A stretch of 64,000 nt of DNA from Minisyncoccota bacterium (lineage in GTDB: Bacteria; Patescibacteriota; Minisyncoccia; Phycocordibacterales; JAQTLZ01). The notes beneath the pieces are model-generated. The model ran no database searches and was not told the DNA's origin. It worked only from the letters and a program-made list of their open reading frames with translations. The DNA is taken from positions 32,354 to 96,353 of the forward strand of contig JAQTLZ010000004.1 of assembly GCA_028714635.1 (NCBI GenBank). The letters run 5' to 3'. The position numbers were made by a program, and so were the translations under genes. Below, one piece after another: positions 2,047-50,170 of this stretch; the first letter of the stretch is position 1, and every line of letters begins with the position of its first letter.

Positions 2047-2825
2047 CACTGTAGCAAGGATTGTCCTTGCTACAGTGAGTTTGGTGCCGTACTGTGCTCA
2101 TTCTCCAAATAATCTTCGATAAAATCGTCCATCGAAGATTTCTGTCCGAAATAGTCGGGAAATGCTTCCCTGTTTAAAATAGATTTTTCGGATCTATCTT
2201 CTGCTATATAATCCGGATAACTTGAATACTGATAAGATTCCAAAAAGCTCTTCATCGTCTTTTTCTCGTTTGTAAGTGTATCAAGATTCTTTTTCCACTC
2301 CGGAAACTTGATATCAAGAGGATTGAGATGAATATATCCAAACATATGACGCATATATCTATCGTTTGCACCAATCAGTTTTGATTTAAATGGTCCACCA
2401 AACAATGCTCCCTGTCTCTGGTATTTAATATTAAAATACATCGAATACGCTGTGCCAAGTTTTTTCATAAACTTCGTAATTCCTCCGTCTACATCTTGCC
2501 TGACTAATATATGGAAATGATTTGAAAGAATGCACCACGCGCCGATGGAAACAATCGGCTTTTCTTTCTCAAGTTCTATGATTTCTTCATATTTTCTATG
2601 TTCATGATTTATCAGATTATCAAGTCGAATAGACTCTTCTGAGTTTGCGACAACAAGGAGCATCATAAACCGCTCATAATCGAATTTAGTTTTGAATATG
2701 ACTCGTTTATCTATTCCGCGATTATAGAGATGGTAGTATTCGTCGGTAACAAAAGGGTCATCTCGAAGCATTCTTATATTTTATCGGACGAGGACACCCG
2801 TAGCAAGGACTGTCCTTGCTACGGG
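2047..2825 (-). mobile_element. Minimal IS200/IS605-like or RAYT-type element: one HuH transposase gene bounded by two near-identical subterminal hairpins.
   Basis: Hairpins at 2047-2077 (cactgtagcaagga-ttg-tccttgctacagtg) and 2798-2825 (cccgtagcaagga-ctg-tccttgctacggg) flank ORF 2070-2771. Confidence 0.6.
2070..2771 (-). CDS. Y1 HuH transposase of the IS200/IS605 TnpA / REP-associated tyrosine transposase (RAYT) family (COG1943-like).
   Basis: Motifs YHLYNRG near the N-terminus, HuH motif NHFHILV, and the catalytic-Tyr region GYIHLNPL. Confidence 0.7.
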   Translation of the reverse strand: MLRDDPFVTDEYYHLYNRGIDKRVIFKTKFDYERFMMLLVVANSEESIRLDNLINHEHRKYEEIIELEKEKPIVSIGAWCILSNHFHILVRQDVDGGITKFMKKLGTAYSMYFNIKYQRQGALFGGPFKSKLIGANDRYMRHMFGYIHLNPLDIKFPEWKKNLDTLTNEKKTMKSFLESYQYSSYPDYIAEDRSEKSILNREAFPDYFGQKSSMDDFIEDYLENEHSTAPNSL

Positions 2826-11665: not shown

Positions 11666-11797
11666 GAGGATAAATATAGCATAATTCGATCAGTTAAAAA
11701 ATTGAGTTGTCCGAACATGTTGACAAATACTAAATTCGTAGTAATCTATATTTTGGTAGACACTCGAATTTCGCAGTGTCGGATTGGGGAGGAAGTC

Positions 11798-12010
11798 ATG
11801 ATCAATAATTTCGTGCCAAGTCCAGATTGGACAGATGCAGAACGCCTCCAGTTGATCGCTCTTCTGGGGCAGGAGATGAAGGAGGCATCTCAACAAGTCC
11901 TCCTAGCATCGTCAAAGGTGTTTACTTGGGGGGAAAAGCTTGTGTTTCTCGCGACACAGAGCCCAGCCTTTCTTGAGGCTAATCGATCACAGATTTTGGG
12001 GGACGATTAG
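11798..12010 (+). CDS. Small hypothetical protein (70 aa). The start codon is at 11798, preceded by a GGAGG Shine-Dalgarno site.
   Basis: The ORF-track ORF 11660-12010 trimmed to the first ATG with an SD. Its GC content is higher than the backbone. Confidence 0.3.
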   Translation: MINNFVPSPDWTDAERLQLIALLGQEMKEASQQVLLASSKVFTWGEKLVFLATQSPAFLEANRSQILGDD

Positions 12011-12052
12011 CCTGCGGCTCCTACGTGACGCGCCGTTGTTCAACTAACATCT

Positions 12053-12100
12053 AGCTGTTTTGTTCGCCGCCAAGCGAACAAAACAGCTATTTTATTTATA
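12053..12100. terminator. Bidirectional rho-independent terminator between convergent genes.
   Basis: agctgttttgttcgc-cgccaa-gcgaacaaaacagct followed by a T run. Confidence 0.55.
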
Positions 12101-12685
12101 TTTTTTCAGAACTTCGAAATCTTTTTTTAAAGTGTCTTTAAGGTGTTGATTATAGATTGCGGCGGCGGGGTGGTAGAGCGGGATGACTGTGAGGCTACCG
12201 TAGGAGACTTCTACTTCAAAAGTTTTGCCGTGCATCATGCTTATTACTTGTAACTGTGCGCCAAGACCGAATTTTTTCATAATGTATTCCATCGAGAAAC
12301 GCCCCAATGTTGCGATGATTTTCGGCTCAATTATAGTGATTTGACGGTCTAAAAATGGCCCGTAAGCGTCTATTTCTGACGGTAGAGGGTCACGATTGTC
12401 AGTAGGCCTATCCTTGACGATGTTTGTCACATAGACGCCCTTTCGGTCAATCCCGACGCTCGCCAAAAGCTCGTCCAAAATCCTGCCTGATGCTCCGCAA
12501 AAAGGCTTGCCCGTTTTGGCCTCATTCTTTCCTGGCGCTTCGCCGATGAACATTATTTTCGCATAATGATCCCCTTCTCCGATCACAGGGAAAACTTTAT
12601 TTTTCCGGCGCTCATCAGCAAGCGGACTTTCCATTGCGAGAAGCTCGTCTTTAATCCGTTTGAGTTTTACTGTGTGTTCGTCCAT
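12092..12685 (-). CDS. Uracil-DNA glycosylase, family 4.
   Basis: Family 4 signature GEAPGxxE...GxPFxGxxG ... HPAA, present here as GEAPGKNEAKTGKPFCGASGRILDELL...YHPAAAIY. Confidence 0.8.
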   Translation of the reverse strand: MDEHTVKLKRIKDELLAMESPLADERRKNKVFPVIGEGDHYAKIMFIGEAPGKNEAKTGKPFCGASGRILDELLASVGIDRKGVYVTNIVKDRPTDNRDPLPSEIDAYGPFLDRQITIIEPKIIATLGRFSMEYIMKKFGLGAQLQVISMMHGKTFEVEVSYGSLTVIPLYHPAAAIYNQHLKDTLKKDFEVLKKYK

Positions 12686-12978
12686 TAATCTTCATTTCTA
12701 GCGAGGTTGTAGCGAGGTTGAACCTCGCTAAGAGCACCCTCCTTTTTAAGAAGTGCGATTTTTTGCATATCTCCGCGATTATAGTGTCCGGTTTTGCCGT
12801 CGGAACGGATGACTCGGTGGCACGGGATTCTCGGATTGTAGTTGGTTTTGAGGATGGAGCCGACAGCGCGGGAAGCCCGAGGGCTTCCCGCGCGCTCTGC
12901 CACTTCTTTGTACGTCAGAACTTTTCCTTTTGGAATTTTCGCCACTACTGCAAACACTTTTTCCGTAAACGTCTTCAT
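12685..12978 (-). CDS. ogt: Methylated-DNA--protein-cysteine methyltransferase (C-terminal DNA-binding/active-site domain).
   Basis: PCHRV active-site motif. It overlaps the UDG gene by 1 nt (ATGA), so a two-gene repair operon is likely. Confidence 0.75.
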   Translation of the reverse strand: MKTFTEKVFAVVAKIPKGKVLTYKEVAERAGSPRASRAVGSILKTNYNPRIPCHRVIRSDGKTGHYNRGDMQKIALLKKEGALSEVQPRYNLARNED

Positions 12979-14635: not shown

Positions 14636-14718
14636 TTGACAAGCTTTGAGAAATGTATACTATTTTCGTCGAAAGTTGGCGTTTAAATCCTTTGAAACCC
14701 TGTTTAAGGAGTCAGACA

Positions 14719-15450
14719 ATGGCCACAAGTCGTCGACAAGGAATTCTGGTGCCGGATTTTACGGCGCGCCCGGATCGCCCAAGCGGGACAATTCCAGCGA
14801 TTGTCCAACTTGAAGGAAATGGGGTCGTCATTGATCTCATTTACCTGAACCGAAGCAAGTTTTTTGAAATGCTTTGGACTGGAACGGTAAGCGCCTGCAG
14901 AAAGGAACTTCAGGTTGTCGGTGTGCGCATAAACTGCGAGGTGAACTCCCTTTTGGTATCGGTTTCAAGAAAATCGGCCAATGATCGTTCGGTGCTTTGT
15001 ACGGTAGAGCGCGACGAGCTTTTTCCCCACAAAAACGAGCCGAAGTTCAAGGATGGAGATGAGATCAGGCCCGTGATTGTCATGCAGACCTTTCCGGAAG
15101 GAATGGTCTCGATGCTTGGCTCAACGAATAGTCTGGCATTCGAAACAATGCGCGACCTAGGCCAGCTTGTACTTTGGTCGGTCTCGAGGAAAAAACTTTG
15201 GCACAAAGGCGCCGAAGAAAGTGGAAATTATGTTCCCGTGGAGCATGTCTACACACACCCAAGCGGCATGCTTCTCACTTATGTGACGAATTCGGCGGTG
15301 CCAGTCTGTCACACAAATTCCTTGGGATGCTACTCTCGCAGTGTTCTTGTCAGTACGCCTCTCCTTATGGATGTCCCGGAAGATAGGATTCCGAGGCTGA
15401 AAGTTCTTGATAGGAGAATGGCGGCGGTGTCCGAGCTGATCAAATCCTGA
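14719..15450 (+). CDS. Hypothetical protein. It is GC-rich and has a strong AAGGAG Shine-Dalgarno site.
   Basis: ORF trimmed to MATSRRQG..., which is preceded by aaggagtcagacaATG. I recognise no domain. Confidence 0.45.
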   Translation: MATSRRQGILVPDFTARPDRPSGTIPAIVQLEGNGVVIDLIYLNRSKFFEMLWTGTVSACRKELQVVGVRINCEVNSLLVSVSRKSANDRSVLCTVERDELFPHKNEPKFKDGDEIRPVIVMQTFPEGMVSMLGSTNSLAFETMRDLGQLVLWSVSRKKLWHKGAEESGNYVPVEHVYTHPSGMLLTYVTNSAVPVCHTNSLGCYSRSVLVSTPLLMDVPEDRIPRLKVLDRRMAAVSELIKS

Positions 15451-17984: not shown

Positions 17985-18022
17985 AACAAAAAACTGCCTT
18001 GCCGGCAGTTTTTTGTTTTTAT
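17985..18022. terminator. Hairpin with a T run.
   Basis: aactgcc-ttgcc-ggcagtt followed by ttttgttttt. Confidence 0.5.
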
Positions 18023-19053
18023 CCTACGAGAGAGTATTTTGCGTCTTTGTCTTTCTTGAAGTGCTTCGAGTTTTGGAGGTTAATCGCAATAGTGTTCTCC
18101 TTGACATATCGTTCTTTGAGCACTTTTTCAATGATTTCTTGTTTCGTCAATGGTCCGTGCTTTTCGAGAACCTTCTTGATAACGTCTTTTACCACTCCTG
18201 AAAGATATCCCCATTCAGAAAGAGCATAGAGTCCGCGTCCTACAAGCACGAATCGAGGATCTTTGATGAGCTCGTTGTGACAGGTTGCGACATGAGCCTT
18301 CTTTTTGAACGTATCGGTAATTGCTTTTGCAACTTGAGTGAAGTGGATCGGAGAGCCGTGCTTTCGGATAACGAGAAATGCGTAGTCTCTCATTCCTTTC
18401 GCTTTAATATTTGGAGAAGAAGTTAGTCCCCACTCGCCCATTGGATTTCGGCCGATCTTTTTTGAAACTGAAAGCCATCGCTTGATGATCTCTTCTTTTT
18501 TGAAATGATCAGAAAGATCTTTTACGTAATCAAGGAAAGTGTTGATGATCTCTGATTCCGGAATAATATCGTCGTCGCCAAGGTTTTTGTAAAGTTTTCG
18601 CAGTGATTCGTGTACCTTTGCAGAAAGAGCATCGTCAACATACCATCGGTGCTTGAATTCATCGTCCTCTTTCTCTCGCTTAAAGTTGTGGCTCAAAATC
18701 ATGAGAAAGTTGATGTGATTCTGGGTAGAAGCATCTTTTGCAAGATGACTTAGAAAATCCTCTTCCGCAACAAATCCACCCATTTCATGAAGGATCGCTT
18801 CAAGCTCGTCAAAAGCAGCCTTTTCTTTCTTGTAGCCTTCGGATTTCTTGATGTTGTGAATCGCGTAGTTTTCGATCTGTCGAACTCGTTCTCGAGTGAT
18901 GTTGTATGTCTTGCCGATCGCCTCAAGAGTCATTCGTTCCGGCTTTGCACCAAGCCCAAAACGGCTTACGAGCACATCCCTCGCGCGAGCAGGGAGAACG
19001 CCCAAAAGCTTCTTGGTTATCTGTTTTGGTTTAAATTTAATTGCTGGTGTCAT
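18019..19053 (-). CDS. Protein with an N-terminal sigma-70 region-4-like HTH domain and a long C-terminal domain of unknown function.
   Basis: ARDVLVSRFGLG...TLEAIGKTYNITRERVRQIE closely resembles sigma-70 region 4.2. Confidence 0.55.
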   Translation of the reverse strand: MTPAIKFKPKQITKKLLGVLPARARDVLVSRFGLGAKPERMTLEAIGKTYNITRERVRQIENYAIHNIKKSEGYKKEKAAFDELEAILHEMGGFVAEEDFLSHLAKDASTQNHINFLMILSHNFKREKEDDEFKHRWYVDDALSAKVHESLRKLYKNLGDDDIIPESEIINTFLDYVKDLSDHFKKEEIIKRWLSVSKKIGRNPMGEWGLTSSPNIKAKGMRDYAFLVIRKHGSPIHFTQVAKAITDTFKKKAHVATCHNELIKDPRFVLVGRGLYALSEWGYLSGVVKDVIKKVLEKHGPLTKQEIIEKVLKERYVKENTIAINLQNSKHFKKDKDAKYSLVG

Positions 19054-19234: not shown

Positions 19235-22200
19235 TTATACGACGATACTCACTAATTTATTTTTTACGTAGATAATTTTTTTCGCGGTCTTTCCCTCCAT
19301 CCACTTCAGCGTTTCTGGAAGTGAGAGAGCTCTTTTCTTGGTCTCCTCCTCCCCCATCTCGCTTTCGACCCTAAATTCTCCGCGCACTTTTCCATTTACT
19401 TGTACGACGATTGTGAAGGACGATGTCCCGATCAAAGCACTATCAAATACAGGCCACTGTGCATCTTTTAGCTCTCCCTTTCCGAATAGTGACCATAATT
19501 CTTGCGTAACATGAGGAGCGAATGGTGAGAGAATTTTGAGAAAATCCGAGAATATTTCTGCTCCGATCTCTGTTTCTTTTTCGGCCTCATTTAAAAACAT
19601 CATCATTGAAGAGATCGCTGTATTGAATTTGAAATCAACGATATCTTCACCAACTTTTTTGATTGTTTTGTGAAGCGAGTTTAAAAGATTCTGCGATGGC
19701 GCTGTTTTGGGCTTTTGGGCGACCTTCTGTGAAAGTTTCCAGACGCGCTCTACAAAGCGCCGTGAACCGATCATGCTTTCTGTACTCCAATTGATGGCAT
19801 TTTCAAACGGACCCATAAACATTTCATAAATACGAAGTGTATCGGCGCCATAGAGCTTGATGATATCATCGGGATTAATAACATTTCCGAATCTTTTACT
19901 CATTTTCTTCCCGTCTTCGGCAAGTATGAGTCCTTGGTTCTTGAGACGCATGAATGGTTCAGTCGTCGAGACCGCTCCGATATCAAAAAGAAATTTGTGC
20001 CAGAAGCGCGCGTAAATAAGATGGCGTGTCGCATGTTCTGTCCCCCCGACGTAGACATCTACAGGCGCCCAATACTTTTCTTTTTTTGGATCTACAAATG
20101 TTTTAGAATTTTTGGGGTCCATGTAGCGGAGATAATACCAAGAAGAGCCCGCCCATTGGGGCATTGTGTTTGTTTCCCGCTTTGCAGGACCATAGCATTT
20201 CGGGCATTTCACATTTACCCATTTTGAAATTTCAGCAAGCGGAGACTCCCCCGTTCCTGTCGGCGCATATGACTTTACTTTGGGCAATTTTACCGGCAAA
20301 TCCTTTTCCGGAACTGGTACAGTCCCGCACTTTTCACAGTGGATTATTGGAATCGGTTCGCCCCAATATCTTTGGCGTGAAAAAACCCAATCGCGCAGGC
20401 GGTAAGTTGTTTTTTTCACAGCAAGCTTGTTTTTTTCCAGGTACGAGATGATGTTCTGTCTTTCCTTTCCGGAGAACTTTCCTTCGAATGCTTTTGGTTC
20501 GTTAAGAACCCCATTTTTCATATCACTGAAACAAACTTCAAGGTTTCGAACTTTTTCAGCAAGGACTTTGTCCGCCGGAAAGAGTACCGGTTTCAAACGA
20601 ATCTTATATTTTTTCGCAAAAGCAAAATCACGTTCGTCATGAACCGAACATTTTACAATTCCCGTACCATAATCAGCTAAAGCAAAACTGGCGATCCAAA
20701 TTGGAAGGTCTCCATTCCCTACCGGGTCTACAATATATCTGCCTGTGAAAATTCCTTCTGATTCTTTTTCTTCCGCGAAGCCTTGTCCCGCACGCTTTTT
20801 AATAAGTCCTGCCGCAAAATCAAGAATCTCTTTTTTGTTCGGTATTCCTTCAAGAAGTTTTGGTAGATATGGGTGATCCGGAGCAATCACGACGAATGTA
20901 TCGGCCGTAAATGCTTCAAAATGAGCCGAAAAGGTCTGAATTGTGAGCTTCGTGTCTTTGACGGGTGCCGTAAAAAGCATTCCTTCTGACTTCCCTATCC
21001 AATTTCTCTGGGATTCTTTGATTGACTCTGGCCAATTCAAGCCCGCTGTTCTTTGCCCCTTTTGGATTCTTGGCAGTATTTTTTTCTGTACCGCGTCTAT
21101 TACATGCGAATAGCGGATTTCATCAGATTCCTCTGATTTATATTCTCCTGTTTGCGGATCTTTGATGAGCGATTCTACCGGATATCCGTCCCAAAAAGTT
21201 TTTGACTGTTGATCCTGCAAAATATATTCCTTGCCTTTTGCAACTAAGTTTTCGGTACCCGATGCATCGGTAAAAGAAAGAGCATAAAGGAATCTGCTTT
21301 TCGATTCCCCGTTCTTTTTCACGAAATCTTTAAGATATTTCACAACCTCCTCATCGCTTGCCCGAGGAGAATTGGGATTCGCGTGTTTCCGCATATGAAC
21401 GACATTTCCATCATTTTCGGGCCATTTCTCCATCCAGAAAATGTGGTCGCTTGAAAGGGTAGGAATTCCAGTCTTTTTAAAATAATATTCGGATTTTTTC
21501 CGAGCGTTTTCCTCGAAGTCATCGCCTTCTACGAGATCGGAATCATCAATTTTTGCTATGTCGTCTAGGGATAGTAACGTTATTCCGCTTTCTTTGGGAA
21601 CGCATCTCCTCCACATTTCTACTTTGGCATTATTTCTCGTTCCGATAAGAATTTTCAGAGGTTCTTTTTGAACTGGCGCGTCGAGATCAGCAAGAAGACG
21701 TTCTGCGTAGTCGGTGATTTTCAAAATCCATTGCCGCATCGGACGTTTTTCCACGACAGAACCACATCGTTCGCATTTTCCATCTTCCAAGTCTTCATTC
21801 GCGAGTCCCGTCTGGCAGGATGGACACCAATTGATCGGTTCGTATGATTCATATGCCAATCCTTTTTTGAAAAGCTCCAAGAATATCCACTGCGTCCATT
21901 TGTAGTATTTCGGATCAGTCGTGTTTATCTCCCGGGTCCAATCATAATTGAAACCCATAATGGAGAGCTGTTCTTTAAAACGCTTGATATTTTTCTTCAC
22001 AGCAATTTCGGGATGAATCTTATTTTTTATCGCGTAGTTTTCCGCGGGCAAGCCAAAAGCGTCCCAACCCATAGGGTGGAGGATGTTATATCCTTTCATT
22101 TGCATAAAGCGCGAGTAGATGTCGGTAGCTATGTAGCCTTTTGGGTGACCCACATGAAGACCGTCTCCCGAAGGATATGGAAACATGTCCAAGACATAAT

Positions 22201-22300
22201 GTTTTGGCTTTTTCGGATCTTCATGGGAGGTGTAGACTTTTTTCCGAGCCCATTCTTTTTGCCACTTCTTTTCGATCTTTAGATGATCGTATTTTTGCAT
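19235..22300 (-). CDS. leuS: Leucine--tRNA ligase carrying a ~210-aa insertion between the catalytic core and the CP1 editing domain.
   Basis: HVGH and KMSK motifs, a CP1 editing domain and an anticodon-binding domain. I moved the start to MQKYD (22300) because the upstream terminator hairpin would otherwise lie inside the ORF. Confidence 0.9.
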   Translation of the reverse strand: MQKYDHLKIEKKWQKEWARKKVYTSHEDPKKPKHYVLDMFPYPSGDGLHVGHPKGYIATDIYSRFMQMKGYNILHPMGWDAFGLPAENYAIKNKIHPEIAVKKNIKRFKEQLSIMGFNYDWTREINTTDPKYYKWTQWIFLELFKKGLAYESYEPINWCPSCQTGLANEDLEDGKCERCGSVVEKRPMRQWILKITDYAERLLADLDAPVQKEPLKILIGTRNNAKVEMWRRCVPKESGITLLSLDDIAKIDDSDLVEGDDFEENARKKSEYYFKKTGIPTLSSDHIFWMEKWPENDGNVVHMRKHANPNSPRASDEEVVKYLKDFVKKNGESKSRFLYALSFTDASGTENLVAKGKEYILQDQQSKTFWDGYPVESLIKDPQTGEYKSEESDEIRYSHVIDAVQKKILPRIQKGQRTAGLNWPESIKESQRNWIGKSEGMLFTAPVKDTKLTIQTFSAHFEAFTADTFVVIAPDHPYLPKLLEGIPNKKEILDFAAGLIKKRAGQGFAEEKESEGIFTGRYIVDPVGNGDLPIWIASFALADYGTGIVKCSVHDERDFAFAKKYKIRLKPVLFPADKVLAEKVRNLEVCFSDMKNGVLNEPKAFEGKFSGKERQNIISYLEKNKLAVKKTTYRLRDWVFSRQRYWGEPIPIIHCEKCGTVPVPEKDLPVKLPKVKSYAPTGTGESPLAEISKWVNVKCPKCYGPAKRETNTMPQWAGSSWYYLRYMDPKNSKTFVDPKKEKYWAPVDVYVGGTEHATRHLIYARFWHKFLFDIGAVSTTEPFMRLKNQGLILAEDGKKMSKRFGNVINPDDIIKLYGADTLRIYEMFMGPFENAINWSTESMIGSRRFVERVWKLSQKVAQKPKTAPSQNLLNSLHKTIKKVGEDIVDFKFNTAISSMMMFLNEAEKETEIGAEIFSDFLKILSPFAPHVTQELWSLFGKGELKDAQWPVFDSALIGTSSFTIVVQVNGKVRGEFRVESEMGEEETKKRALSLPETLKWMEGKTAKKIIYVKNKLVSIVV

Positions 22301-22317
22301 GAACTTTAGAATACAAT

Positions 22318-22356
22318 ACAAAAAACGCCGGCGCAACACGCCGGCGTTTTTTTGGA
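22318..22356. terminator. Strong bidirectional rho-independent terminator.
   Basis: aacgccggcg-caaca-cgccggcgtt flanked by A and T runs. Confidence 0.65.
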
Positions 22357-40303: not shown

Positions 40304-41515
40304 TTAGAACAGTTTTCCCCTGACTCTTTTATGATACGAAATTGCGAATCGGTGCGCTTCGCTGTTTGCTAAGAGAATTTCTTTCTTATATTTTCGAGCA
40401 AGTAATTCGTCTCCCAGGAAATGATCGGGCTTGTGGCGGTCGTCTTTTACTACGTTTATGATTGGAGTTTTCAGTCCAAAATTTTCTAGCACTTTTTCTG
40501 CCAAATTTCTTTGTGCAATTCCCCCGTCTATTACTATCAAATTTGCAGTTGGCCATTCAGAGTGTTTCAGTCTGCGTTCAAGTACTTCTCGAAGCGCTCC
40601 CGTGTCGCTTCCCGCTTTGGCAGTGCGGATTTTAAACATCCGATAATCGGCCTTTTTTACTTCCCCATCTTCCACAACAGTCATTACGCCAACGGTTGAA
40701 GTTCCGCTTATATGAGCAACGTCATAAGCTTCGATTCTCATGTATCCCTTATTCGCGCGAATTAGGGATATATCAGATTTGAGGAGAGCGACGTCTTGGA
40801 TATGGCCGAGCGCGAAAATTTGTTTTTTGATCTTGTCTGCTTTTTCAAATTCTCTATTCTTGGCGAGGGTTTTCATCTCTTTCTCAAGAGATCTTACAAG
40901 AGTAGATTTTTTCCCCTCAAAAAAGAGTTTCAAGTGTGTGATTTGCCGAGCATACTCAACTTTTCCCATTCGTCCATCGCATACGCCCGGGCAAAGGCCG
41001 ATTTGGGCGTTGAAACACAATTTTCCTTGAAGTGGAGTACAAGTGTCCCGATATGGGAAAATTTTCCGAATAATTTTGAGTGCAATTTTTAACTGTCCGC
41101 CATTTGGAAAGGGGCCGAAAATATCTTTCACTTTATAATCCAGAGAATCTAGATTTTTACCGCGAACCAAAAGAATACGAGGAAAATCTTCTTTTGTGAA
41201 AACGACATAGTTGTAGCTTTTATCATCTTTTTCATCCGTATTGTATTTTGGCTGATGCTTCTTTATAAGAGCAGCTTCAAGAATGAGGGCTTCAAGAACC
41301 GAATCAGTAATCTGAAAATCAATTGAATCGGCTTTTTCAACCATTTTGGTGATAAGCGGGCTCCGAGCTTCCCCAAGCCGTGCTGAAAAATAGCTCTTTA
41401 CTCGGTCGTGAAGAGATGTGGCTTTGCCGATATAAAGAATCTCTTTTTCATATCGAAAAAAGTATACTCCGGGCAAGTCTGGCAGATTTTTTAATGATTC
41501 TTGACTAATTGACAT
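40304..41515 (-). CDS. uvrC: Excinuclease ABC subunit C, a short form with the GIY-YIG and EndoV/RNaseH-like domains but no C-terminal HhH.
   Basis: GVYFFRYEKEILYIGKATSLHDRVKSYF is a GIY-YIG motif. The start is trimmed to MSISQESL. Confidence 0.8.
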   Translation of the reverse strand: MSISQESLKNLPDLPGVYFFRYEKEILYIGKATSLHDRVKSYFSARLGEARSPLITKMVEKADSIDFQITDSVLEALILEAALIKKHQPKYNTDEKDDKSYNYVVFTKEDFPRILLVRGKNLDSLDYKVKDIFGPFPNGGQLKIALKIIRKIFPYRDTCTPLQGKLCFNAQIGLCPGVCDGRMGKVEYARQITHLKLFFEGKKSTLVRSLEKEMKTLAKNREFEKADKIKKQIFALGHIQDVALLKSDISLIRANKGYMRIEAYDVAHISGTSTVGVMTVVEDGEVKKADYRMFKIRTAKAGSDTGALREVLERRLKHSEWPTANLIVIDGGIAQRNLAEKVLENFGLKTPIINVVKDDRHKPDHFLGDELLARKYKKEILLANSEAHRFAISYHKRVRGKLF

Positions 41516-41588
41516 AATAGTGTTTTGAATGATACAGTAAGGGCCGTTACTTTGGCAAGGAAACCGAAAAGAAAAGGAGAATTCAGAG

Positions 41589-42341
41589 ATGACAAAAAAA
41601 GTGCTGATCGTGGAGGACAGCGAAGGAATCCAGGATCTTTGCTGGCAAGCGTTGGTAAAGGGTGTGGGATTTCCCCAAGAAGACATCCTTCAGGCCTACA
41701 CCATCGGAGAGGCCAAGGGTTTGTTCAAGACAAACAGCGCCGATATCGCCATCATTTTCTTTGATGGAAAGCTTGGCGAGAAGACATCCATTAAGCTGGT
41801 GAAGGAGATTCGTCAGAAGTTCGACGGTGTGATGGTCGCAGCGTCGAGTGACATCAACGATGAACTCATCGCCGCTGGCTGTACCAAAACGTGGGCCAAG
41901 AATCCGATGGCAGACTTTGTCTCAATGGTCGTTGAGGCGACAGGGTGGGTCAAAAAGAAGAAGATTCTCGCCATAGAATCCTGCTCACCCGCAAGCAGGG
42001 AGGCAATGCTCCGAGCGTTTGAAGTCGAAGCAGAACGGATTGGCGTAGACCTCATCCTGCCCCAGAGACTGGGGAAGGAGTTTGACGCAGAGAATGTTGT
42101 TGCTGTAGTTCAAATGTCGCGGATCGACGGAGTCATTCTGAGCGGATTTACGATCATCGAGGACCAATGGCTCTTTGCTATCTTTACCCGGTTACAAGAG
42201 GAAAAGATTCCGGTGTTGGTTGTATCTGAAGACGGCCCGTGGATCAAGCGCATTGCGGAAGCTGGCTGTCCTGAAGATTTTCGCATGCACGACAAGAGCA
42301 AGGCTTTGGAAAGATTCAAGGCATTACTCACCACGCAATGA
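41589..42341 (+). CDS. Stand-alone protein with two tandem receiver (REC)-like domains and no output domain; GC-rich.
   Basis: KVLIVEDSEGI...DIAIIFFDGKL in the first half and KKILAIESCS...VDLILPQ in the second. Strong AAGGAGA Shine-Dalgarno site. Confidence 0.5.
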   Translation: MTKKVLIVEDSEGIQDLCWQALVKGVGFPQEDILQAYTIGEAKGLFKTNSADIAIIFFDGKLGEKTSIKLVKEIRQKFDGVMVAASSDINDELIAAGCTKTWAKNPMADFVSMVVEATGWVKKKKILAIESCSPASREAMLRAFEVEAERIGVDLILPQRLGKEFDAENVVAVVQMSRIDGVILSGFTIIEDQWLFAIFTRLQEEKIPVLVVSEDGPWIKRIAEAGCPEDFRMHDKSKALERFKALLTTQ

Positions 42342-42392
42342 GTTTCTGAAGTTTGTTAGACGATATTGGGGTAAGCGCAAGCTTGCTCCTTT

Positions 42393-44999
42393 TTATTTCA
42401 AAGCTTTCTTCAAATATTTGCCTGTGTAAGACTTAGTATTATTGGCAACTTCTTCCGGAGTCCCCTTTGCCACCACTTTCCCTCCCCCATTTCCTCCTTC
42501 TGGACCGATATCAATAATATAGTCAGAACTTTTTATGACATCCATGTTGTGTTCGATCACGAGCACTGTGTTACCGTGCTTCACCAGCCTTTGCAAAATT
42601 TCAATTAGTTTTCGCACATCTTCGTAGTGAAGGCCGATTGTCGGCTCATCCAAAATGTAAAGTGTCTTTTGAAGATGAGGACGGTATAGCTCTGACGAAA
42701 TTTTTACTCTTTGCGCTTCCCCGCCGGAAAGCGTTGTCGCTGATTGGCCAAGTCTTAAATATCCAAGACCCACCTCATCAAGTGTCTTCATTCGATCATA
42801 AATAGCTGGAATATCCTCGAAGAATTTGAGTCCTTCTTCTACTGTCATCTGAAGCACATCATAAATACTTTTCTTTTTGTATTTAATTTCGAGCGTTTCT
42901 TTCATGAATCGCTTTCCTTCACAGACTTCGCAAGGAACGTAGACTGTCGGCAAAAAATGCATTTCAACGGCAATCATTCCGTTTCCCTGGCAGTTTTCAC
43001 AGCGTCCGCCTTTTACATTGAATGAAAATCGATTGGCTTTCCATCCGCGAGCGCGAGCTTCGGCTGAAGCTGCAAAAAGATCTCGGATGAATATCCACGA
43101 ACCTGTGTAGGTTACAGGATTTGAACGAGGAGTTCGGCCGATCGGACTTTGGTCAATGAGAATCGTTCGTCCAATATATTCGCTTCCTGTGAATGAAGAG
43201 CAATTGTGAGTATCGTTTGAACGGAAATGGCGTTCAAGTCGGCATTGGAGATTTTTATGGATTATTTCGTACACGAGGGAGGATTTCCCAGAACCAGACA
43301 CACCGGTCACGCTCACAAGTCTGCCAAGCGGAACATCGAGATCCATATTTTTAATATTGAAGATATTTCCGTTGCGGATTTTCAGCGCACCTTTTTCTTC
43401 AGTTCGTCTTTCTTCCGGCGGTTCTATTGCCGTTTCTCCGCGCAGATATGAAAGAGTAAGAGATTTCGAATCATTTTTCTTGGCCAGAAGAAGTTTTTCA
43501 AGATAATCGGCGACAACGATTTCTCCGCCGTGTACTCCTGCTCCCGGGCCAATGTCTACTATGTAATCCGATGCAAAAATCGTATCTTCGTCATGTTCTA
43601 CAACGACAATAGTGTTTCCAATATCACGAAGGTGGAGCAGGGTTTTAATAAGTCGGTCATTATCTCTCGCATGAAGACCGATGGTCGGCTCATCAAGCAC
43701 ATAGAGCGCTCCCACAAGCCCGGAACCAAGTTGTGAAGCGAGGCGAATTCGCTGCGCTTCTCCACCCGAGAGCGTATGGGCGCGCCTATCGAGAGAGAGA
43801 TAATCAATACCGACATCGATCATAAATTGGAGCCTACTTTCAATTTCTTTTATGATCACCTTCGAGATATTTTTTTCTGTGGCGGTGAGTTTGAGTTTCG
43901 AGAAAAAATCAAAACAATCCGCGATAGACATTCCAACCAGATTCACAATATTTACTTTTCCTTCGCCAAGAAATACATGAAGGGCTTCTTCCCGAAGCCG
44001 AGCGCCTTTGCACTTTGGACAGGGTTCTTCACCGAAAAAATGTTTTGTTCCAAGTCCGTTACATTCTGGACACGCTCCATATGGGGAATTGAAGGAGAAA
44101 AGGCGGGGCTCGATTTCTGGATATGAAAATCCATCATATGCGCACATGAATTTTGCAGAGATGAGATGCTCTTTTGTTTCTCCGCCTTCTCCGGGGTATT
44201 CGATTCGGAGAAGTCCGTCAGATTCGGCAAGTGCACGTTCAATCGCTTCACTAAGCCTTTCGTGAGCTCCACTTTTTGATTTTAGATCTTTGAGTTCTGT
44301 GACGAAAATTTCATCAACAACCACATCAATGTCGTGCTTTTGAGTTTTGGAAAGAATAATTTGTTCCCGCAACTTTTTATTTTTCCCATCCACTCGCACT
44401 TCTTTATATCCTTTCCCGAGAAGATCGTAGAGAAGTTGGTAATATTCACCTTTTCTTCCAACAACAAGGGGCGACAGAATTCGAATTTTAAGAGTATCGT
44501 ATACGACTCCCATTACCTTTTTAGTTGTACCAGTTTCGATAGATTCGACAGTTTTGAGAATCGTTTCAAGAATTTCTTCGTTCGTATGCTTTTTAATAAC
44601 TCTTCCGCAAATGAGACAGTGTGGTTTGCCTACACGAGCGTAAAGAATACGGAGGTAGTCGTAAATTTCTGTGATAGTAGCAACAGTTGAGCGAGGATTA
44701 TTCGAGCGGGATTTTTGGTCGATTGAAATTGCAGGAGAAAGGCCGATGATCTCGTCCACATCCGGCTTTTGCATTTGGCGCAAGAATTGTCGAGCGTATG
44801 AAGAAAGAGATTCGACATATCGCCGCTGTCCTTCAGCAAAAATGGTATCGAACGCCAAAGACGACTTCCCGCTTCCGGAAAGCCCTGTGAAAACAACCAT
44901 TTTATTGCGAGGCATCTCTACCGTCACATTTTTTAGGTTGTGGGTGCGGGCGCCCCTGATAACTAATTTATCTTGATTTTCCTTCATAAAAGACAGCAA
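42393..44999 (-). CDS. uvrA: Excinuclease ABC subunit A.
   Basis: Two ABC cassettes ([12 protein letters not shown] / [11 protein letters not shown]) and zinc-finger cysteines. Confidence 0.95.
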
Positions 45000-45057
45000 A
45001 GACCTACGCGGTGACGCATAGGGTTATGTATGAATTGTTCTAGTCTACTATAATCTT

Positions 45058-45092
45058 AGAAAAAGAAAAAGCTCGAACCGAAGTCCGAGCTC
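45058..45092 (-). terminator. Minus-strand hairpin with a T run that ends the uvrB/kinase transcript.
   Basis: gagctcggacttcggttcgagc followed by tttttcttttt on the minus strand. Confidence 0.45.
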
Positions 45093-45405
45093 CGTGGAAA
45101 TCCTTTCGAACTTCTAAAAGAGTATGCTTCCAGGGCTCCAACTGAAGGAGCGATGATTTTTCTTGATCGTTTCCGGATGTGATCTCGGAGACGACTCGAA
45201 GTCTTGGGGTTGGGATGGTTCTACTTGGGGCATGATCTTTTCGCCCCTTCGTTCCATCTCTGCGAAAACCTCGACAATGTTACAGCGTTTTGAAAGGCCA
45301 CCGCGAGCCTCTTTTCCTTGTAGCATTTGCGCTAATCTCCTTTCCCGTGTTGTACTTCCCCGAACAGGTATAGCAAAAAGAAACCTTGAGGTCAAAGTGG
45401 AAAAG

Positions 45406-46122
45406 TTAGGAAACTGTCTTATTTGTTGGAATAGTGAAGAAAAATGTGGTTCCTTTTCCCTCTTCGCTTTCAAACCATATTTTTCCTCCCTGTCCTTCGA
45501 GCACATTTTTGATGATGTAAAGCCCAAGTCCGATTCCATCCCTTCTCTGCTTAATTGCGTTTTTCGCGCGGAAAAATTCGCTGAAAATCTTCGGCTGTTC
45601 TTCTTTCGAAATTCCAATTCCTTGGTCAGAAACTGATACTGTAAATTCATCTTTACCCGGAACTAATTTCACGCTTATTTTCGTACCTGGTTTTGAATAA
45701 GTTACGGCGTTTTCTATGAGGTTTTGAAGTATGGTATGAATTTTATTTGGATCTACAACCAAGGGAGGAAGTGAAAGTCCTTCTGTCTCAAAAACTAAAT
45801 CAATTCCATAGCGTTCTGCCAAAGGAAGGAAGCTTGTGACAATATTTGAGATGAGATCCACAACTTGGGTTTCCTCGTAGTTGTACTGAAATTTTCCAGA
45901 CTTCAATGTATCTAAACTTAAAATATCATTCACAATTGCAATGGTGTTGTCGTTGTCCTCATAACATTTTTCCAGAACTTTCATTTGCTCGTCATTCAAA
46001 GGCCCAAGATCGCCTTTGAGTACTCCGGATAATGTCCATTTAATTCCTGCGAGAGGTGTGCGCAACTGGTGTACGAGAATAGTAGCAAAATCACCTTTTG
46101 CATCTTTTTTTTCTTCAGACAT
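45406..46122 (-). CDS. Soluble sensor histidine kinase (HisKA + HATPase_c), with no TM segment or sensor domain.
   Basis: H-box HQLRTPL, the G-box GIGLGLYIIK, and the GKIWFESEEGKGTTF region. Confidence 0.85.
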   Translation of the reverse strand: MSEEKKDAKGDFATILVHQLRTPLAGIKWTLSGVLKGDLGPLNDEQMKVLEKCYEDNDNTIAIVNDILSLDTLKSGKFQYNYEETQVVDLISNIVTSFLPLAERYGIDLVFETEGLSLPPLVVDPNKIHTILQNLIENAVTYSKPGTKISVKLVPGKDEFTVSVSDQGIGISKEEQPKIFSEFFRAKNAIKQRRDGIGLGLYIIKNVLEGQGGKIWFESEEGKGTTFFFTIPTNKTVS

Positions 46123-46137
46123 GGGAATATTCTAACA

Positions 46138-48171
46138 CTAAGACTTTTTCTTAGCCATTGAGTTTTGCAACATCGCAATCTCGTCTCGAAGAAGTGCTGC
46201 GGTCTCAAAATCGAGTACTTTTACGGCAGCATTCATCTGTTTCTCTTTTTCTTTAATAAATTTTGCAGGATTCTTCTTAAAAAATTTATCATCAAGCTCG
46301 ATCAAATTTTTGAGCGTTTTCGAGTGCTTGTTTTCCATTGTCTCGGTAATGTCATGAATTTTCTTCAGAATCGTTTTGGGAGTGATGCTGTGTTTCGTAT
46401 TATAAGCGACTTGAAGAGCCCTGCGACGATTGGTCTCGCTTATCGCTCTTTCCATTGAACCGGTCATGTTGTCAGCATAAAGAATCACGTGGCCAAGCAC
46501 GTTTCGGGCGGCACGGCCGATAGTTTGAATGAGCGAGGTTTCAGAGCGGAGAAATCCCTCCTTGTCAGCATCCAAAATTCCGATGAGCTCAACTTCCGGC
46601 AGATCAAGCCCTTCTCGCAGTAAGTTTACCCCGACTATGCAGTCAAATTTCCCTTTTCGAAATTCAGTTAGAATTCTAATGCGATCAAGCGTTTCGATGT
46701 CGCTATGCAGATATTCCGCTTTTACGCCGCGCTCTTTGAGATATTCGCTCAAATCTTCTGCCATTTTTTTGGTGAGCGTTGTCGCGATAACACGATTCCC
46801 TCTTTTAATCACCGCTTCGGCTTCCATTATGAAGTCCTTGATTTGACCTTGAAATTTTCCTTTTGAAATGATTGGACGGATAATTATTTCAGGATCAATA
46901 AGACCTGTTGGGCGAATGACCTGCTCAACTATCTGTTGGCTTTCTTTTTTTTCATATTCTCCCGGAGTGGCGGACGTATAAATTACTTGTCCAACTCTTT
47001 CTCGAAATTCTTCGGCCTTGAGTGGGCGATTATCTTTCGCGGAAGGAAGTCGGAAGCCGTGTTCGATCAAAGTTTTCTTTCGAGAAGCATCCCCAGCGTA
47101 CATTCCTCCAATTTGGGGCACAGTTACGTGCGATTCATCTATAATAGTGAGAAAATCTGCTGAACCATCTGCTTTGTGCGGGAAATAGGAAAGCAAAGAG
47201 TCTGGCGGTTCACCTTCCATTTTCCCCGAGAAGTGTCGAGAATAGTTTTCAATTCCGTTGCAATAGCCAACTTCGCGGATGAGCGCCAGATCGTATCTTG
47301 TTCGTCGCTTGATTCTCTCTGCTTCCAAAAGCTTTCCTTCCTTATCGAATTTTTTGATTTGTTCTTTGAGCTCGGCTTCGATAGTTTGGAGGGCGCTTTT
47401 TACTCCTTCGGAAGTGCTGATGAAATGTTTTGCCGGAAAAAGGAAAAAATTGTCCACGTTTTCTAAAACTGAACGGCTGATTGCATCAATGACTTCAATC
47501 TCGTCGATGACACTTTCTTTGAAACTTAAACGGTAAATGAGTTTCTCATTGACCGGCATTATTTCAATCGCATTTCCAAGTGCCCTGAAAAGTCCGGGCT
47601 CAAGGTCAGCATTAGTGCGTTCAAAATGGAGATTTACCAGTTTTCGAATGAAATCTGCGCGTGAAATAACCTGATTCTTTTCAATTTTCAAATTCACCTT
47701 CTCATATTCAACCGGAGAACCCAAACCGTAAATACAAGAAACCGAAGCAACAATAATGACATCACTTCGCGTGAGAAGTGCCTGTGTCGATGCGTGGCGA
47801 AGTCGGTCAATTTCATCATTTATCATTGCCTCCTTTTCGATATATGTGTCGGTGGTTGGCAAATACGCTTCCGGCTGGTAGTAGTCGTAATACGAAACAA
47901 AATAATGCACAGCATTTTCTGGGAAAAATTCTTTGTATTCTTGAGCGAGCTGGGCAGCGAGCGTTTTGTTGTGAGCAATGACAAGCGTCGGTTTCTGAAC
48001 TTTTTCGATGATGTTTGCGACAGTAAAAGTTTTCCCAGAACCGGTAACCCCAAGAAGTGTTTGGTGATTCATTCCTTCTTTGAGCCCCTTTACGAGTGCA
48101 GAAATAGCGAGTGGCTGGTCACCCGCAGGTTTGAATTCCGATTTCAACTTGAATTTCTTTTCTAACTTCAT
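46138..48171 (-). CDS. uvrB: Excinuclease ABC subunit B.
   Basis: GVTGSGKTFT Walker A motif, helicase motifs, and a C-terminal UVR domain (...AALLRDEIAML). Confidence 0.95.
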   Translation of the reverse strand: MKLEKKFKLKSEFKPAGDQPLAISALVKGLKEGMNHQTLLGVTGSGKTFTVANIIEKVQKPTLVIAHNKTLAAQLAQEYKEFFPENAVHYFVSYYDYYQPEAYLPTTDTYIEKEAMINDEIDRLRHASTQALLTRSDVIIVASVSCIYGLGSPVEYEKVNLKIEKNQVISRADFIRKLVNLHFERTNADLEPGLFRALGNAIEIMPVNEKLIYRLSFKESVIDEIEVIDAISRSVLENVDNFFLFPAKHFISTSEGVKSALQTIEAELKEQIKKFDKEGKLLEAERIKRRTRYDLALIREVGYCNGIENYSRHFSGKMEGEPPDSLLSYFPHKADGSADFLTIIDESHVTVPQIGGMYAGDASRKKTLIEHGFRLPSAKDNRPLKAEEFRERVGQVIYTSATPGEYEKKESQQIVEQVIRPTGLIDPEIIIRPIISKGKFQGQIKDFIMEAEAVIKRGNRVIATTLTKKMAEDLSEYLKERGVKAEYLHSDIETLDRIRILTEFRKGKFDCIVGVNLLREGLDLPEVELIGILDADKEGFLRSETSLIQTIGRAARNVLGHVILYADNMTGSMERAISETNRRRALQVAYNTKHSITPKTILKKIHDITETMENKHSKTLKNLIELDDKFFKKNPAKFIKEKEKQMNAAVKVLDFETAALLRDEIAMLQNSMAKKKS

Positions 48172-48278
48172 ATCGAGAAACTATACTATTCTGATAGATA
48201 AAAACAAAGGGCATCTTGACGACGCCCTTGTAACACGAATATTGCTGCAAAGATATGAGTCGGTTCTGGCCCCGACAA

Positions 48279-48709: not shown

Positions 48710-50038
48710 TTACGCGCCCGGCTTAAAGCTGAAGCTCTGCACTTGCACGGCTTTCTTCAAGTTGGCCTTCTTTTTGGGGTTGTGTACAAAGACGATCACC
48801 CCCGTGCTGCTGTCTATTGTACGGCCGGTAAATGTTGCTTCTAGGCCATACAATACAGGATCCTGCTCTGCAACGCCGGTGAGCGTTTTCTTCCCATTCA
48901 AACCGTCCACAACATAGTAGTGAACAATCAAATGGTCGGAGCTTGTAGTTGTCGGGTTCACTGTCGGCTTCACAACACCCTTACCGCCCGCGGAAATCGT
49001 AAACGGCGCCGAAAATGCTCGAAAGGTGCGGTCAGTCTTCTCAACGAAGATCTGATACACACCCGGCGGAACATCATACTCGATGTACCATTGCGTTTCC
49101 TCGGAGTCGGGGAAAAAGTTTTCGGCAATAGAGCCGACCCACTTCATCGAGGTGTCAATCCTTCGGACCATCACATTTGCCCTGACGAGTCCGTCAGAGC
49201 TATACCCAAACCTCAGGTAATCCCCCAAGGAGTACTCATACTGGAGCGGGTATACGCTGATTTGCGTATCAGTGATCGTGAAATAGCTTTCGCTTTGACC
49301 GCCGTAATACCCCTGCACGGTAACGCGATACACACCTGCATGTGTTCCGATTGGTATCGGCGCGTCTCCTTTTCCCGCGATAAACATTTCATCGGGGATA
49401 GTGATAAACAACCGGTGGCCGTAGCCGTATTCAGATTCCAGATACTCGAACCTGCGGAACGCTCCCGTGTCGATATTTTGAATCAACACGGAACTTCCAT
49501 ATTGCTGGAAATCACCGCCGTAGATGGTCAACTCCTCTCCCACAGCTATGATTTCCGGATCGAGAAATGAAATCGTCGGCGGCGAAATCAAATTGAAAAC
49601 GCTGCCACGAATGTTCCCGACGAACGTTCCGTTACCCTTCCCATCGCTGAAAAGGGAAATTTGGATGAAGTACAGGCCGTCCGGCAGCTGTGCGCCGGTA
49701 TCGGTTGTTCGTGGTTGGAAATCCACCCACGTGTACTCATCCTGTACTGGTGTCCCGAAACTAATCGTAGACACATACACATCCTGATAGCCCATCGGGC
49801 TCGGCATCAAGTACCAGAGGCTTGCCTGCAGGTTCGTGATGCCGAGATCCGGATTGATTCGCACAGTCACCGTGTAGTACTCACCGGTGACCAACGTCGA
49901 GCCGTTATCGGGCCATCTGACCTCAGCGTCAAGCCCAGCCGCGGGCATTGCTTGCGGTTCCTCCGCCACAGCGAATGTCATGGGCGCACAGCCCAGAAAC
50001 ATCGCGACCAAAAAACCAGAAAAGATTTTGAAGAACAT
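48710..50038 (-). CDS. Secreted protein with beta-sandwich (Ig/IPT-like) repeats; GC-rich.
   Basis: Signal peptide MFFKIFSGFLVAMFLGCAPMTFAVA. A GGAGG Shine-Dalgarno site lies 7 nt upstream of the ATG at 50038. Repeated ...ISPPTISFLDP.../...ITDTQISVYP... modules. Confidence 0.6.
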   Translation of the reverse strand: MFFKIFSGFLVAMFLGCAPMTFAVAEEPQAMPAAGLDAEVRWPDNGSTLVTGEYYTVTVRINPDLGITNLQASLWYLMPSPMGYQDVYVSTISFGTPVQDEYTWVDFQPRTTDTGAQLPDGLYFIQISLFSDGKGNGTFVGNIRGSVFNLISPPTISFLDPEIIAVGEELTIYGGDFQQYGSSVLIQNIDTGAFRRFEYLESEYGYGHRLFITIPDEMFIAGKGDAPIPIGTHAGVYRVTVQGYYGGQSESYFTITDTQISVYPLQYEYSLGDYLRFGYSSDGLVRANVMVRRIDTSMKWVGSIAENFFPDSEETQWYIEYDVPPGVYQIFVEKTDRTFRAFSAPFTISAGGKGVVKPTVNPTTTSSDHLIVHYYVVDGLNGKKTLTGVAEQDPVLYGLEATFTGRTIDSSTGVIVFVHNPKKKANLKKAVQVQSFSFKPGA

Positions 50039-50170
50039 TGTGTAGCCTCCTAAATTTGAAGCCTCCGCCACGAAATGAAAAAGCCGGATGATTCCAGCTT
50101 TAATTCATCTCCCTACCTACTAGGAGTATAGCACATCTGGGCATTAAAGTCAATAGTTTTTAGCCTTACT

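Follow-up and report, generated by a model that had tools for sequence, protein, structure and literature searches.

A soluble histidine kinase inside a Patescibacteria uvr cluster: a candidate reduced member of a pilus- and DNA-associated signaling module

Why does a gene for a histidine kinase lie directly behind the excinuclease gene uvrB? Regulators are scarce in bacteria of the candidate phyla radiation (CPR), and their control of DNA repair and of pili is almost unknown. A 64-kb stretch of a Minisyncoccota bacterium genome (contig JAQTLZ010000004.1; hereafter the window, to which all statements of presence or absence concerning this genome refer) carries uvrB, uvrA and uvrC, all on the minus strand and inside 40304-48171, together with genes for the kinase and for a receiver-type protein of 250 amino acids (aa). 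An earlier interpretation made from the letters alone, the sequence-only reading, had noted three excinuclease genes within 8 kb, which holds (7.9 kb, with equivalog-level matches), and had taken kinase and 250-aa protein for a phosphorelay linked to DNA damage or nucleotide-excision repair, an interpretation that is partly supported. With about even confidence, we regard the window as holding, inside the uvr cluster, a kinase/receiver module of a pilus- and DNA-associated type in reduced form. The most defensible reading would be a module that signals at the protein level and is connected with pilus and DNA transactions, rather than a transcriptional substitute for SOS. We found no description in the literature of a kinase/receiver module in the Patescibacteria uvr cluster.

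The kinase gene (45406-46122, minus strand) encodes 238 aa, comprising only a dimerization and histidine phosphotransfer (DHp) domain and a catalytic and ATP-binding (CA) domain. Pfam places HisKA at aa 8-75 (44.9 bits, cut-off 26.9) and HATPase_c at aa 124-233 (101 bits), and the protein has the marks of a class I (HisKA) kinase, with an H-box His in the DHp domain and N, G1, F and G2 boxes. Across an alignment of 20 family members, H18, N138, D166/G168/G170, F180 and G196/G198/G200 are invariant. Input domain and membrane anchor are missing: just seven residues precede HisKA, and none of the kinase orthologues has a hydrophobic segment. Because an in-frame stop codon lies 12 nt upstream of the ATG, the lack of room for a sensor is not an annotation artefact. 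Domain content and upstream stop together bear out the sequence-only description of a kinase free of sensor and transmembrane (TM) segments, 15 bp after uvrB on the same strand. The open reading frame (ORF) is unbroken, with every catalytic box present, in all four genomes that share the window's gene arrangement (the window and loci L001, L002 and L004). The ratio of nonsynonymous to synonymous change (dN/dS) is 0.045 against the L001 orthologue, and therefore indicates a maintained gene under purifying selection; against L004 it is 0.21. In most of the family, Gln follows the phospho-His of the H-box (HQLRT; 46069 region), with Glu in L093; the usual HisKA motif is H-E/D-x-x-T/N, in which Glu or Asp follows the phospho-His. 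Membership in an anti-phage defence system was considered and rejected, since the matches were to generic ATPase domains only.

The gene for UvrB (46138-48171, minus strand, 677 aa) opens the transcription unit. Upstream of it a terminator-like hairpin (48207-48229, minus strand) closes the preceding unit, and the kinase ATG follows 15 nt after the uvrB stop codon; a gap of 15-16 nt is also found in L001 and L002. At the other end, an intrinsic terminator with an 11-bp stem, a 4-nt loop and a T-run (45068-45093, minus strand) ends the unit of uvrB, kinase and possibly a small ORF. The terminator proposed earlier near 45058-45092 thus exists, at 45093-45068 on the minus strand. Because hairpins bound the unit before uvrB and after the kinase, uvrB and the kinase gene most likely share one mRNA, as judged from these predicted signals.

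How general this arrangement is was examined in a one-genome-per-species scan that used UvrB as query and yielded 80 Patescibacteria loci, in which receivers were located by iterated profile search and kinases by phmmer. Wherever the contig was long enough, uvrA followed uvrB on the same strand and uvrC came next; in nearer relatives tgt lies upstream and ddl downstream of the cluster. Judged from these gene orders, clustering of uvrB, uvrA and uvrC is the clade norm (typical of Paceibacteria) and is unlinked to the kinase. In the UvrB tree, all modules embedded among uvr genes fall in one clade, where 16 of 32 species have one; the other clade has none in 47.

Within the clade that carries it, the module takes several forms. 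In L013, L019, L020 and L030 (L017 partial), the order is uvrB, kinase, a tandem receiver of 264-276 aa with both halves canonical, uvrA, uvrC; in L086, L095 and L096, it is uvrB, FIST, kinase, tandem receiver, uvrA. L093 has uvrB, a 270-aa kinase, a single canonical receiver of 128 aa, uvrA, a divergent 117-aa gene and uvrC. Loci L008-L010 have uvrB, a single receiver and uvrA with no kinase, and L021, L026, L031 and L033 carry kinase and receiver after uvrC and before ddl, in the order uvrB, uvrA, uvrC, kinase, receiver, ddl. The window and L001, L002 and L004 share the order uvrB, kinase, uvrA, divergent small gene, uvrC. The sequence-only reading had made its idea depend on recurrence of the uvrB-kinase adjacency in relatives, and it does recur: in L001, L002 and L004 (kinase 53-74% identical) and L093 and, with extra genes, in L013, L019, L020, L030, L086, L095 and L096. 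The L093 layout is that of the window with the canonical receiver still there, exactly where the window has a small ORF, and the receiver-only group L008-L010 is the sister of the window's kinase-only group in the UvrB tree. L002 and L093 both come from assembly GCA_040384425.1, which has two different tgt-uvrB-kinase-uvrA-uvrC loci on two contigs; the bin therefore mixes two populations.

The kinases of relatives differ in their inputs. Those of L013, L019 and L020 have PAS-like N-termini, between one and six TM segments are present in those of L021, L026, L030 and L031 (the L030 kinase with a weak match to a PilS-like 6TM domain), and in L086, L095 and L096 the input is a separate FIST protein. 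Light sensing of the LOV type was rejected for the relatives' PAS domains, whose sequences, read by eye, contain no NCRFLQ-like motif. A full module would thus consist of an input (PAS, TM or separate FIST), a HisKA kinase and one or two stand-alone CheY-like receivers, often with a further divergent receiver between uvrA and uvrC. Its simplest history may have begun when a complete module inserted once, between uvrB and uvrA, in the ancestor of the one clade, followed by moves, fusions and piecemeal losses, of which the window would represent an advanced stage. In the window's lineage, the kinase would have been cut to its catalytic core and come to be transcribed with uvrB from the uvrB promoter, so that the dosage of the sensor-less enzyme would follow uvrB transcription. 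The canonical receiver gene would have been lost, with a promoter-like element, an ORF and the terminator now in its place, and the gene between uvrA and uvrC would now join a divergent but intact receiver to a pseudo-receiver.

That gene (41589-42341, plus strand) encodes the 250-aa protein. The N-terminal half (41589-41948, plus strand) is a divergent receiver domain of the stand-alone type, with E9-D10, D59, S86 and K104. Compared with canonical receivers by hhalign, it gave a probability of 95.9%, with D59 aligned on the acceptor Asp. In an alignment-based AlphaFold model, this half, with a predicted local distance difference test (pLDDT) score of about 90, has the (beta/alpha)5 fold and matches the receivers of KdpE, DivK and Spo0F in Foldseek with a template modeling score of about 0.8 and a root-mean-square deviation of 2.1-2.7 A. 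The Pfam Response_reg score is 18 bits, under the cut-off of 30.2. The N-terminal half is a true receiver that keeps its phosphorylation residues. A full-library search with it found 172 proteins, nearly all stand-alone, 112-135 aa long and 35-45% identical; in an alignment of the receiver relatives (A1), every sequence has D10, and conservation is 90% or more at D59, S86, K104 and an 'AGC' motif. By profile search, this family of orphan receivers, of about 115 aa each, came to 1137 members, mostly from Patescibacteria and mostly undetected by Pfam Response_reg; they conserve the 'AGC' motif and have intact phosphorylation residues (P0124-P0382 among them).

The C-terminal half (41961-42341, plus strand) is a receiver-like pseudo-domain with Ser-Gly in the Asp position. 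It shows an alternating strand/helix pattern; hhalign against receivers reached only 12-13%, Pfam gave no match, and AlphaFold confidence was low (43-72). Single-sequence structure prediction was uninformative (pLDDT 51), and the alignment-based model resolved the N-terminal half only. Neither a phospho-acceptor Asp nor recognizable homology to receivers was found for the C-terminal half, whose homologues are limited to the proteins in the same position in L002 (146 aa) and L093 (117 aa) and to P0122 and P0123. This small family conserves Ser-Gly where receivers carry Asp. Of the two REC-like domains without output seen by the sequence-only reading, one is therefore a receiver and the other only receiver-like. 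Its proposed check for a phospho-acceptor Asp divides likewise: the window's N-terminal domain keeps D10, D59, S86 and K104, the C-terminal domain has no Asp, and in L001 and L004, the two nearest genomes, the orthologues of the N-terminal domain show His instead of Asp.

Other occupants of the slot between uvrA and uvrC differ again. L002 and L093 have only a C-type domain there, and L096 has a complete, more canonical receiver of 125 aa. From these comparisons, the slot looks like an old home of a fast-changing receiver-type gene, and the window's copy is the only one in the close group that still looks phosphorylatable. We rejected descent of the 250-aa protein from the tandem receivers of relatives, because its N-terminal half groups with the orphan receivers of about 115 aa and its C-terminal half only with small proteins of the same slot. 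By sequence grouping and gene position, the ancestral partner of the kinase was not this 250-aa protein. The earlier pairing of the two fails at this point: in relatives, a canonical or tandem receiver lies between kinase and uvrA, and it is absent here.

The place of that receiver is occupied by about 310 nt between the kinase stop codon and the terminator, which the sequence-only reading had given as some 290 nt of unexplained sequence. There was no Rfam match at the gathering or a relaxed threshold, and a structured RNA was rejected on that ground and on a folding z-score of -1.2, no better than for shuffled sequence. A relic receiver gene was undetectable by tblastn with the receivers of six relatives and that of L093 (best E = 0.5). 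The stretch does contain a promoter-like element (TTGACC-17 nt-TATACC; 45367-45395, minus strand) directly after the kinase stop codon, kept in L002 and L004 and missing from L001. It also contains a 70-codon ORF (45114-45326, minus strand) with GGAGA ahead of its ATG, in the slot of the relatives' canonical receiver. L002 and L004 have ORFs of 63 and 62 codons from the same start position, and the intervening DNA is no longer alignable. The peptide is barely conserved and matched no family. Chance would hardly keep a reading frame open from one shared start in three diverged sequences, and element and ORF may therefore be read as a small separate gene.

Beyond the uvr clusters, a metagenome scan with the kinase alignment returned 80 loci, 68 with at least 700 nt after the kinase; 1-3 stand-alone receivers lie directly downstream of the kinase in 45 of the 68. 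The gene after the module was readable at 59 loci. It is pilB in 14, mostly then followed by pilC and often with gaps of 0-20 nt, fpg/mutM in six, recG in two, and holA and uvrA in one each; unrelated singletons make up the remainder. Protein look-ups added the order kinase-receiver-recG in L088 and L094, with differing flanks, and a module at pilB-pilC in L087. Adjoining the kinase-receiver-recG unit of L088 are parts of a diversity-generating retroelement, an RVT_1 reverse transcriptase and bAvd (11431-12836). In L098 (2462-13384), the order is 5'-3' exonuclease, further genes, PAS-kinase, receiver, receiver, fpg, holA, uvrB (opposite strand) and ruvA. Just ahead of that kinase is a HAMP-domain protein, replication and repair genes surround the module, and both pilB and uvrB are within about 6 kb of it.

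Receivers from all four contexts share one sequence signature with two subtypes, which the uvr-linked tandem receivers fuse; on that evidence, modules from different contexts are orthologous. In the metagenomes, the window's kinase has its four best matches (44-46% identity) all near uvrB, and no DNA-binding output occurs anywhere in the module family. Linkage of the wider family to repair genes stands, modules in different lineages having fpg, recG or uvrA as the gene directly downstream; as the family's main context it does not, because the commonest neighbor is pilB-pilC. By a post hoc count, the persistent contexts, three repair genes of different pathways and the pilus motor and platform, appear to exceed chance expectation.

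In the preferred reading, the kinase would autophosphorylate on His18 and hand the phosphoryl group to a stand-alone receiver. The acceptor would be either the 250-aa protein, at Asp59, or a canonical receiver whose gene lies outside the window. Because the family has no DNA-binding output domain, control would run through protein contacts: the receiver would act by binding protein targets and not via transcription. A link to excision repair is plausible, gene neighborhood being its one source. A more ambitious version seems quite unlikely to us: a LexA-free kinase system whose receivers, devoid of DNA-binding output, couple the type IV pilus (DNA uptake) to base-excision, nucleotide-excision and recombinational repair. 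Under that version, the window's kinase would have turned into a sensor-less subunit with dosage tied to uvrB.

Several observations weigh against the preferred reading. A canonical receiver was not found in the 64-kb window, and four other members of the orphan receiver family lie in unrelated contexts with no kinase or uvr gene nearby. In the uvrA-uvrC slot, L001 and L004 have an N-type domain only, with His for Asp and altered acidic residues. Because these two carry His and L002 has only the C-type domain, transfer from the kinase to Asp59 is unlikely, on sequence grounds, to be conserved across the group. Neighborhood evidence is itself weak in small, strongly co-directional genomes, the count of repair contexts is post hoc, and the fpg and uvr contexts, both found in L098, may go back to a single origin. 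The kinase and the receiver-like gene are, moreover, the most divergent parts of the locus relative to the nearest genome (L004/L006). Against L004, UvrB is 97% identical (synonymous divergence, dS, 0.82), UvrA 98% (dS 0.63), UvrC 92% (dS 0.72) and TGT 94%; the kinase is 53% identical, with a dS of 2.0. The raised divergence, seen in the kinase at synonymous sites too, would fit allele replacement or loosened constraint.

The first of these has further indications. Housekeeping-gene DNA is 85-89% identical to the nearest genome (L006), against which blastn found no match for most of the kinase gene and the following gap (45400-46122), for the receiver gene (41589-42341) and for a third island, a lipoprotein-like gene of 453 aa (48710-50071). 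In the kinase tree, L004 falls outside the window, L001 and L002, and this differs from the UvrB tree. Because of the no-match islands, the raised synonymous divergence and the discord between kinase and UvrB trees, the data point to allele replacement or recombination at these genes.

Each alternative can be set against this evidence. The module might control another process, most likely type IV pili, and sit in the uvr cluster by descent and local rearrangement, with no functional bearing on repair. We regard this as doubtful but a serious possibility. It would explain why pilB-pilC is the commonest neighbor, with gaps of 0-20 nt, why uvr linkage is restricted to one clade and why the L098 module lies within about 6 kb of both pilB and uvrB, and gacA-uvrC and uvrY-uvrC co-transcription is a precedent (PMC10875052). 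Co-direction, too, means little where the genes from 1 to 52 kb are nearly all on one strand. Yet fpg, recG and uvr genes recur tightly downstream in different lineages with differing flanks, and the window has no pilus genes. Kinase and receiver-like gene might instead be decaying leftovers with little or no signaling role, which we consider very unlikely. Sensor and canonical receiver are lost, sister lineages retain complementary halves of the module, the content of receiver-like domains varies among four close genomes with Asp changed to His in two, and the kinase is highly diverged from L004 at a dN/dS of 0.21. Decay would, however, be hard to square with a kinase ORF that has no break and lacks no catalytic box in any of the four genomes, a dN/dS of 0.045 against L001, and a window N-terminal receiver with all four key residues.

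The idea closest to the sequence-only reading, that kinase and double receiver form a damage-responsive phosphorelay controlling nucleotide-excision repair in place of LexA/SOS, we judge unlikely. It can draw on the conserved uvrB-kinase adjacency, on the 16 of 32 near relatives that have uvr-embedded modules, arranged in three or more ways, and on related modules directly upstream of fpg, recG and uvrA. The uvr promoters, in addition, lack a GAAC-N4-GTTC box, a consensus that may not be this clade's. Against it, neither a histidine phosphotransfer (Hpt) or Spo0B-type phosphotransferase nor a terminal output regulator was found in the window or the related loci examined, so that the multi-step relay implied by the word phosphorelay is not seen. 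The kinase has no input domain able to sense damage, and the 250-aa protein is not its ancestral partner and has lost the Asp in the nearest orthologues. Nor do the layouts help: promoter-like sites and terminators of their own accompany uvrA and uvrC, far relatives retain the uvr cluster with no module at all, and the family's main neighbor is pilB-pilC.

UvrA, UvrB and UvrC each exceed the curated NCBIfam cut-offs: UvrB scores 969 bits (cut-off 743) and carries the Pfam domains UvrB, UvrB_inter, Helicase_C and UVR, UvrA (42393-44987, minus strand, 864 aa) scores 1241 (1147) and UvrC (40304-41515, minus strand, 403 aa; GIY-YIG, UVR and RNase H-like domains) 321 (285). The start of uvrA is most likely the ATG at 44987, relatives having 864-865 aa. 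For uvrC, the start was corrected to Met58 at 41515; the listed ORF, reaching to 41686, is too long because it would overlap the receiver gene and because relatives have 404-407 aa. The short UvrC devoid of helix-hairpin-helix (HhH) domain that the sequence-only reading had remarked on is real, and is the rule across the clade: the RNase H-like domain stops 11 residues short of the stop codon, and in 49 of 53 homologues from a Patescibacteria sample (L006-L085) the end point lies within 11 residues of that of the window's UvrC. In Escherichia coli, the (HhH)2 domain at the UvrC C-terminus has an important role in 5' incision. In this sample, its absence is a clade norm, neither special to the window's genome nor tied to the kinase.

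Further signals lie around these genes. A terminator-like hairpin (42368-42389, plus strand) stands between the convergent uvrA and receiver genes, and overlapping divergent promoter-like sites (41509-41558) would serve the receiver gene on the plus strand and uvrC on the minus strand; the uvrC-side TTGCCA...TATCAT is kept in L001 and L004. Upstream of uvrA, a 20-mer, TTCATACATAACCCTATGCG (45015-45034, minus strand), is kept in L001, L002 and L004; it might belong to the uvrA promoter or act as an operator. A shared operator at uvr promoters was rejected, because this 20-mer occurs once in the window and no Gram-positive-type SOS box is present. The absence of a GAAC-N4-GTTC-type site at these promoters is to be read with the Gram-positive origin of that consensus in mind.

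An NCBI protein from a Candidatus Pacebacteria MAG matches the kinase at 100% identity, so the window belongs to a Patescibacteria (CPR) genome. The window has a G+C content of about 43%, its genes from 1 to 52 kb are nearly all on the minus strand, and the surrounding genes are housekeeping genes: rpoA, rpsD, alaS, leuS, the ATP synthase operon, ddl, tgt and gdh. Leucyl-tRNA synthetase (19235-22339, minus strand, 1034 aa) has a Ham1-like (ITPase family) match at aa 230-370 that suggests an inserted domain. At 18019-19053 (minus strand) is a 344-aa protein with sigma-70 region 4 and a HARE-HTH domain, and an IS200-type Y1 transposase match lies amid the housekeeping region at 2070-2771 (minus strand). 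Among the few plus-strand genes, one (14653-15450) encodes a 265-aa protein with a phosphoribosyl-AMP cyclohydrolase (HisI) domain; genomes of this type usually lack histidine biosynthesis, so the HisI domain is unexpected.

A module that has no transcription-factor output and recurs beside pilB-pilC, fpg-holA, recG and uvrBAC would be a testable candidate for the means by which CPR bacteria control DNA uptake and repair at the protein level. The locus also appears to display staged dismantling, with sensor loss, partner loss and pseudo-receiver conversion spread across close genomes. Should the linkage prove incidental, it would be a second case, after gacA/uvrY-uvrC, that warns against reading function from uvr neighborhoods.

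In that earlier case, gacA/uvrY adjoins and is co-transcribed with uvrC across many gamma-proteobacteria species (PMC10875052), and a two-component gene can therefore long remain beside a uvr gene. The BarA/UvrY and GacS/GacA systems resemble the window in having a two-component gene directly beside an excinuclease gene. Their linked gene encodes a DNA-binding NarL/FixJ-type regulator, with the kinase encoded elsewhere, whereas in the window the linked gene is the kinase, it lies beside uvrB, and output domains are missing from the receivers. We know of no established role for GacA/UvrY in excision repair. ComDE-driven competence in Streptococcus pneumoniae is a LexA-independent damage response in which ComE is a DNA-binding regulator. 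By analogy, a two-component system, DNA uptake and repair could be joined in a small genome; the analogy is drawn from gene neighborhood, and nothing here shows damage sensing.

Closer in architecture are DivJ/PleC-DivK, LovK-LovR and KinA-Spo0F, in which a soluble or minimal HisKA kinase works with a receiver that has no output domain, and among the structures that best match the N-terminal receiver domain are those of DivK and Spo0F. Unlike these systems, the module has no Hpt or Spo0B-like protein and no terminal regulator that we could find, and unlike LovK-LovR, its PAS-like domains in relatives show no LOV signature by eye. From the pilus systems Chp and PilS-PilR, the module differs in its kinase, which is of the HisKA and not the CheA type, in the lack of a PilR-type DNA-binding regulator and, in the window, of pilus genes. 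The likeness to them lies in relatives in which a kinase and 1-3 single-domain receivers stand directly upstream of pilB-pilC, and in the one relative whose kinase has the weak PilS-like match. The paired CheY-like receivers recall PilG/PilH.

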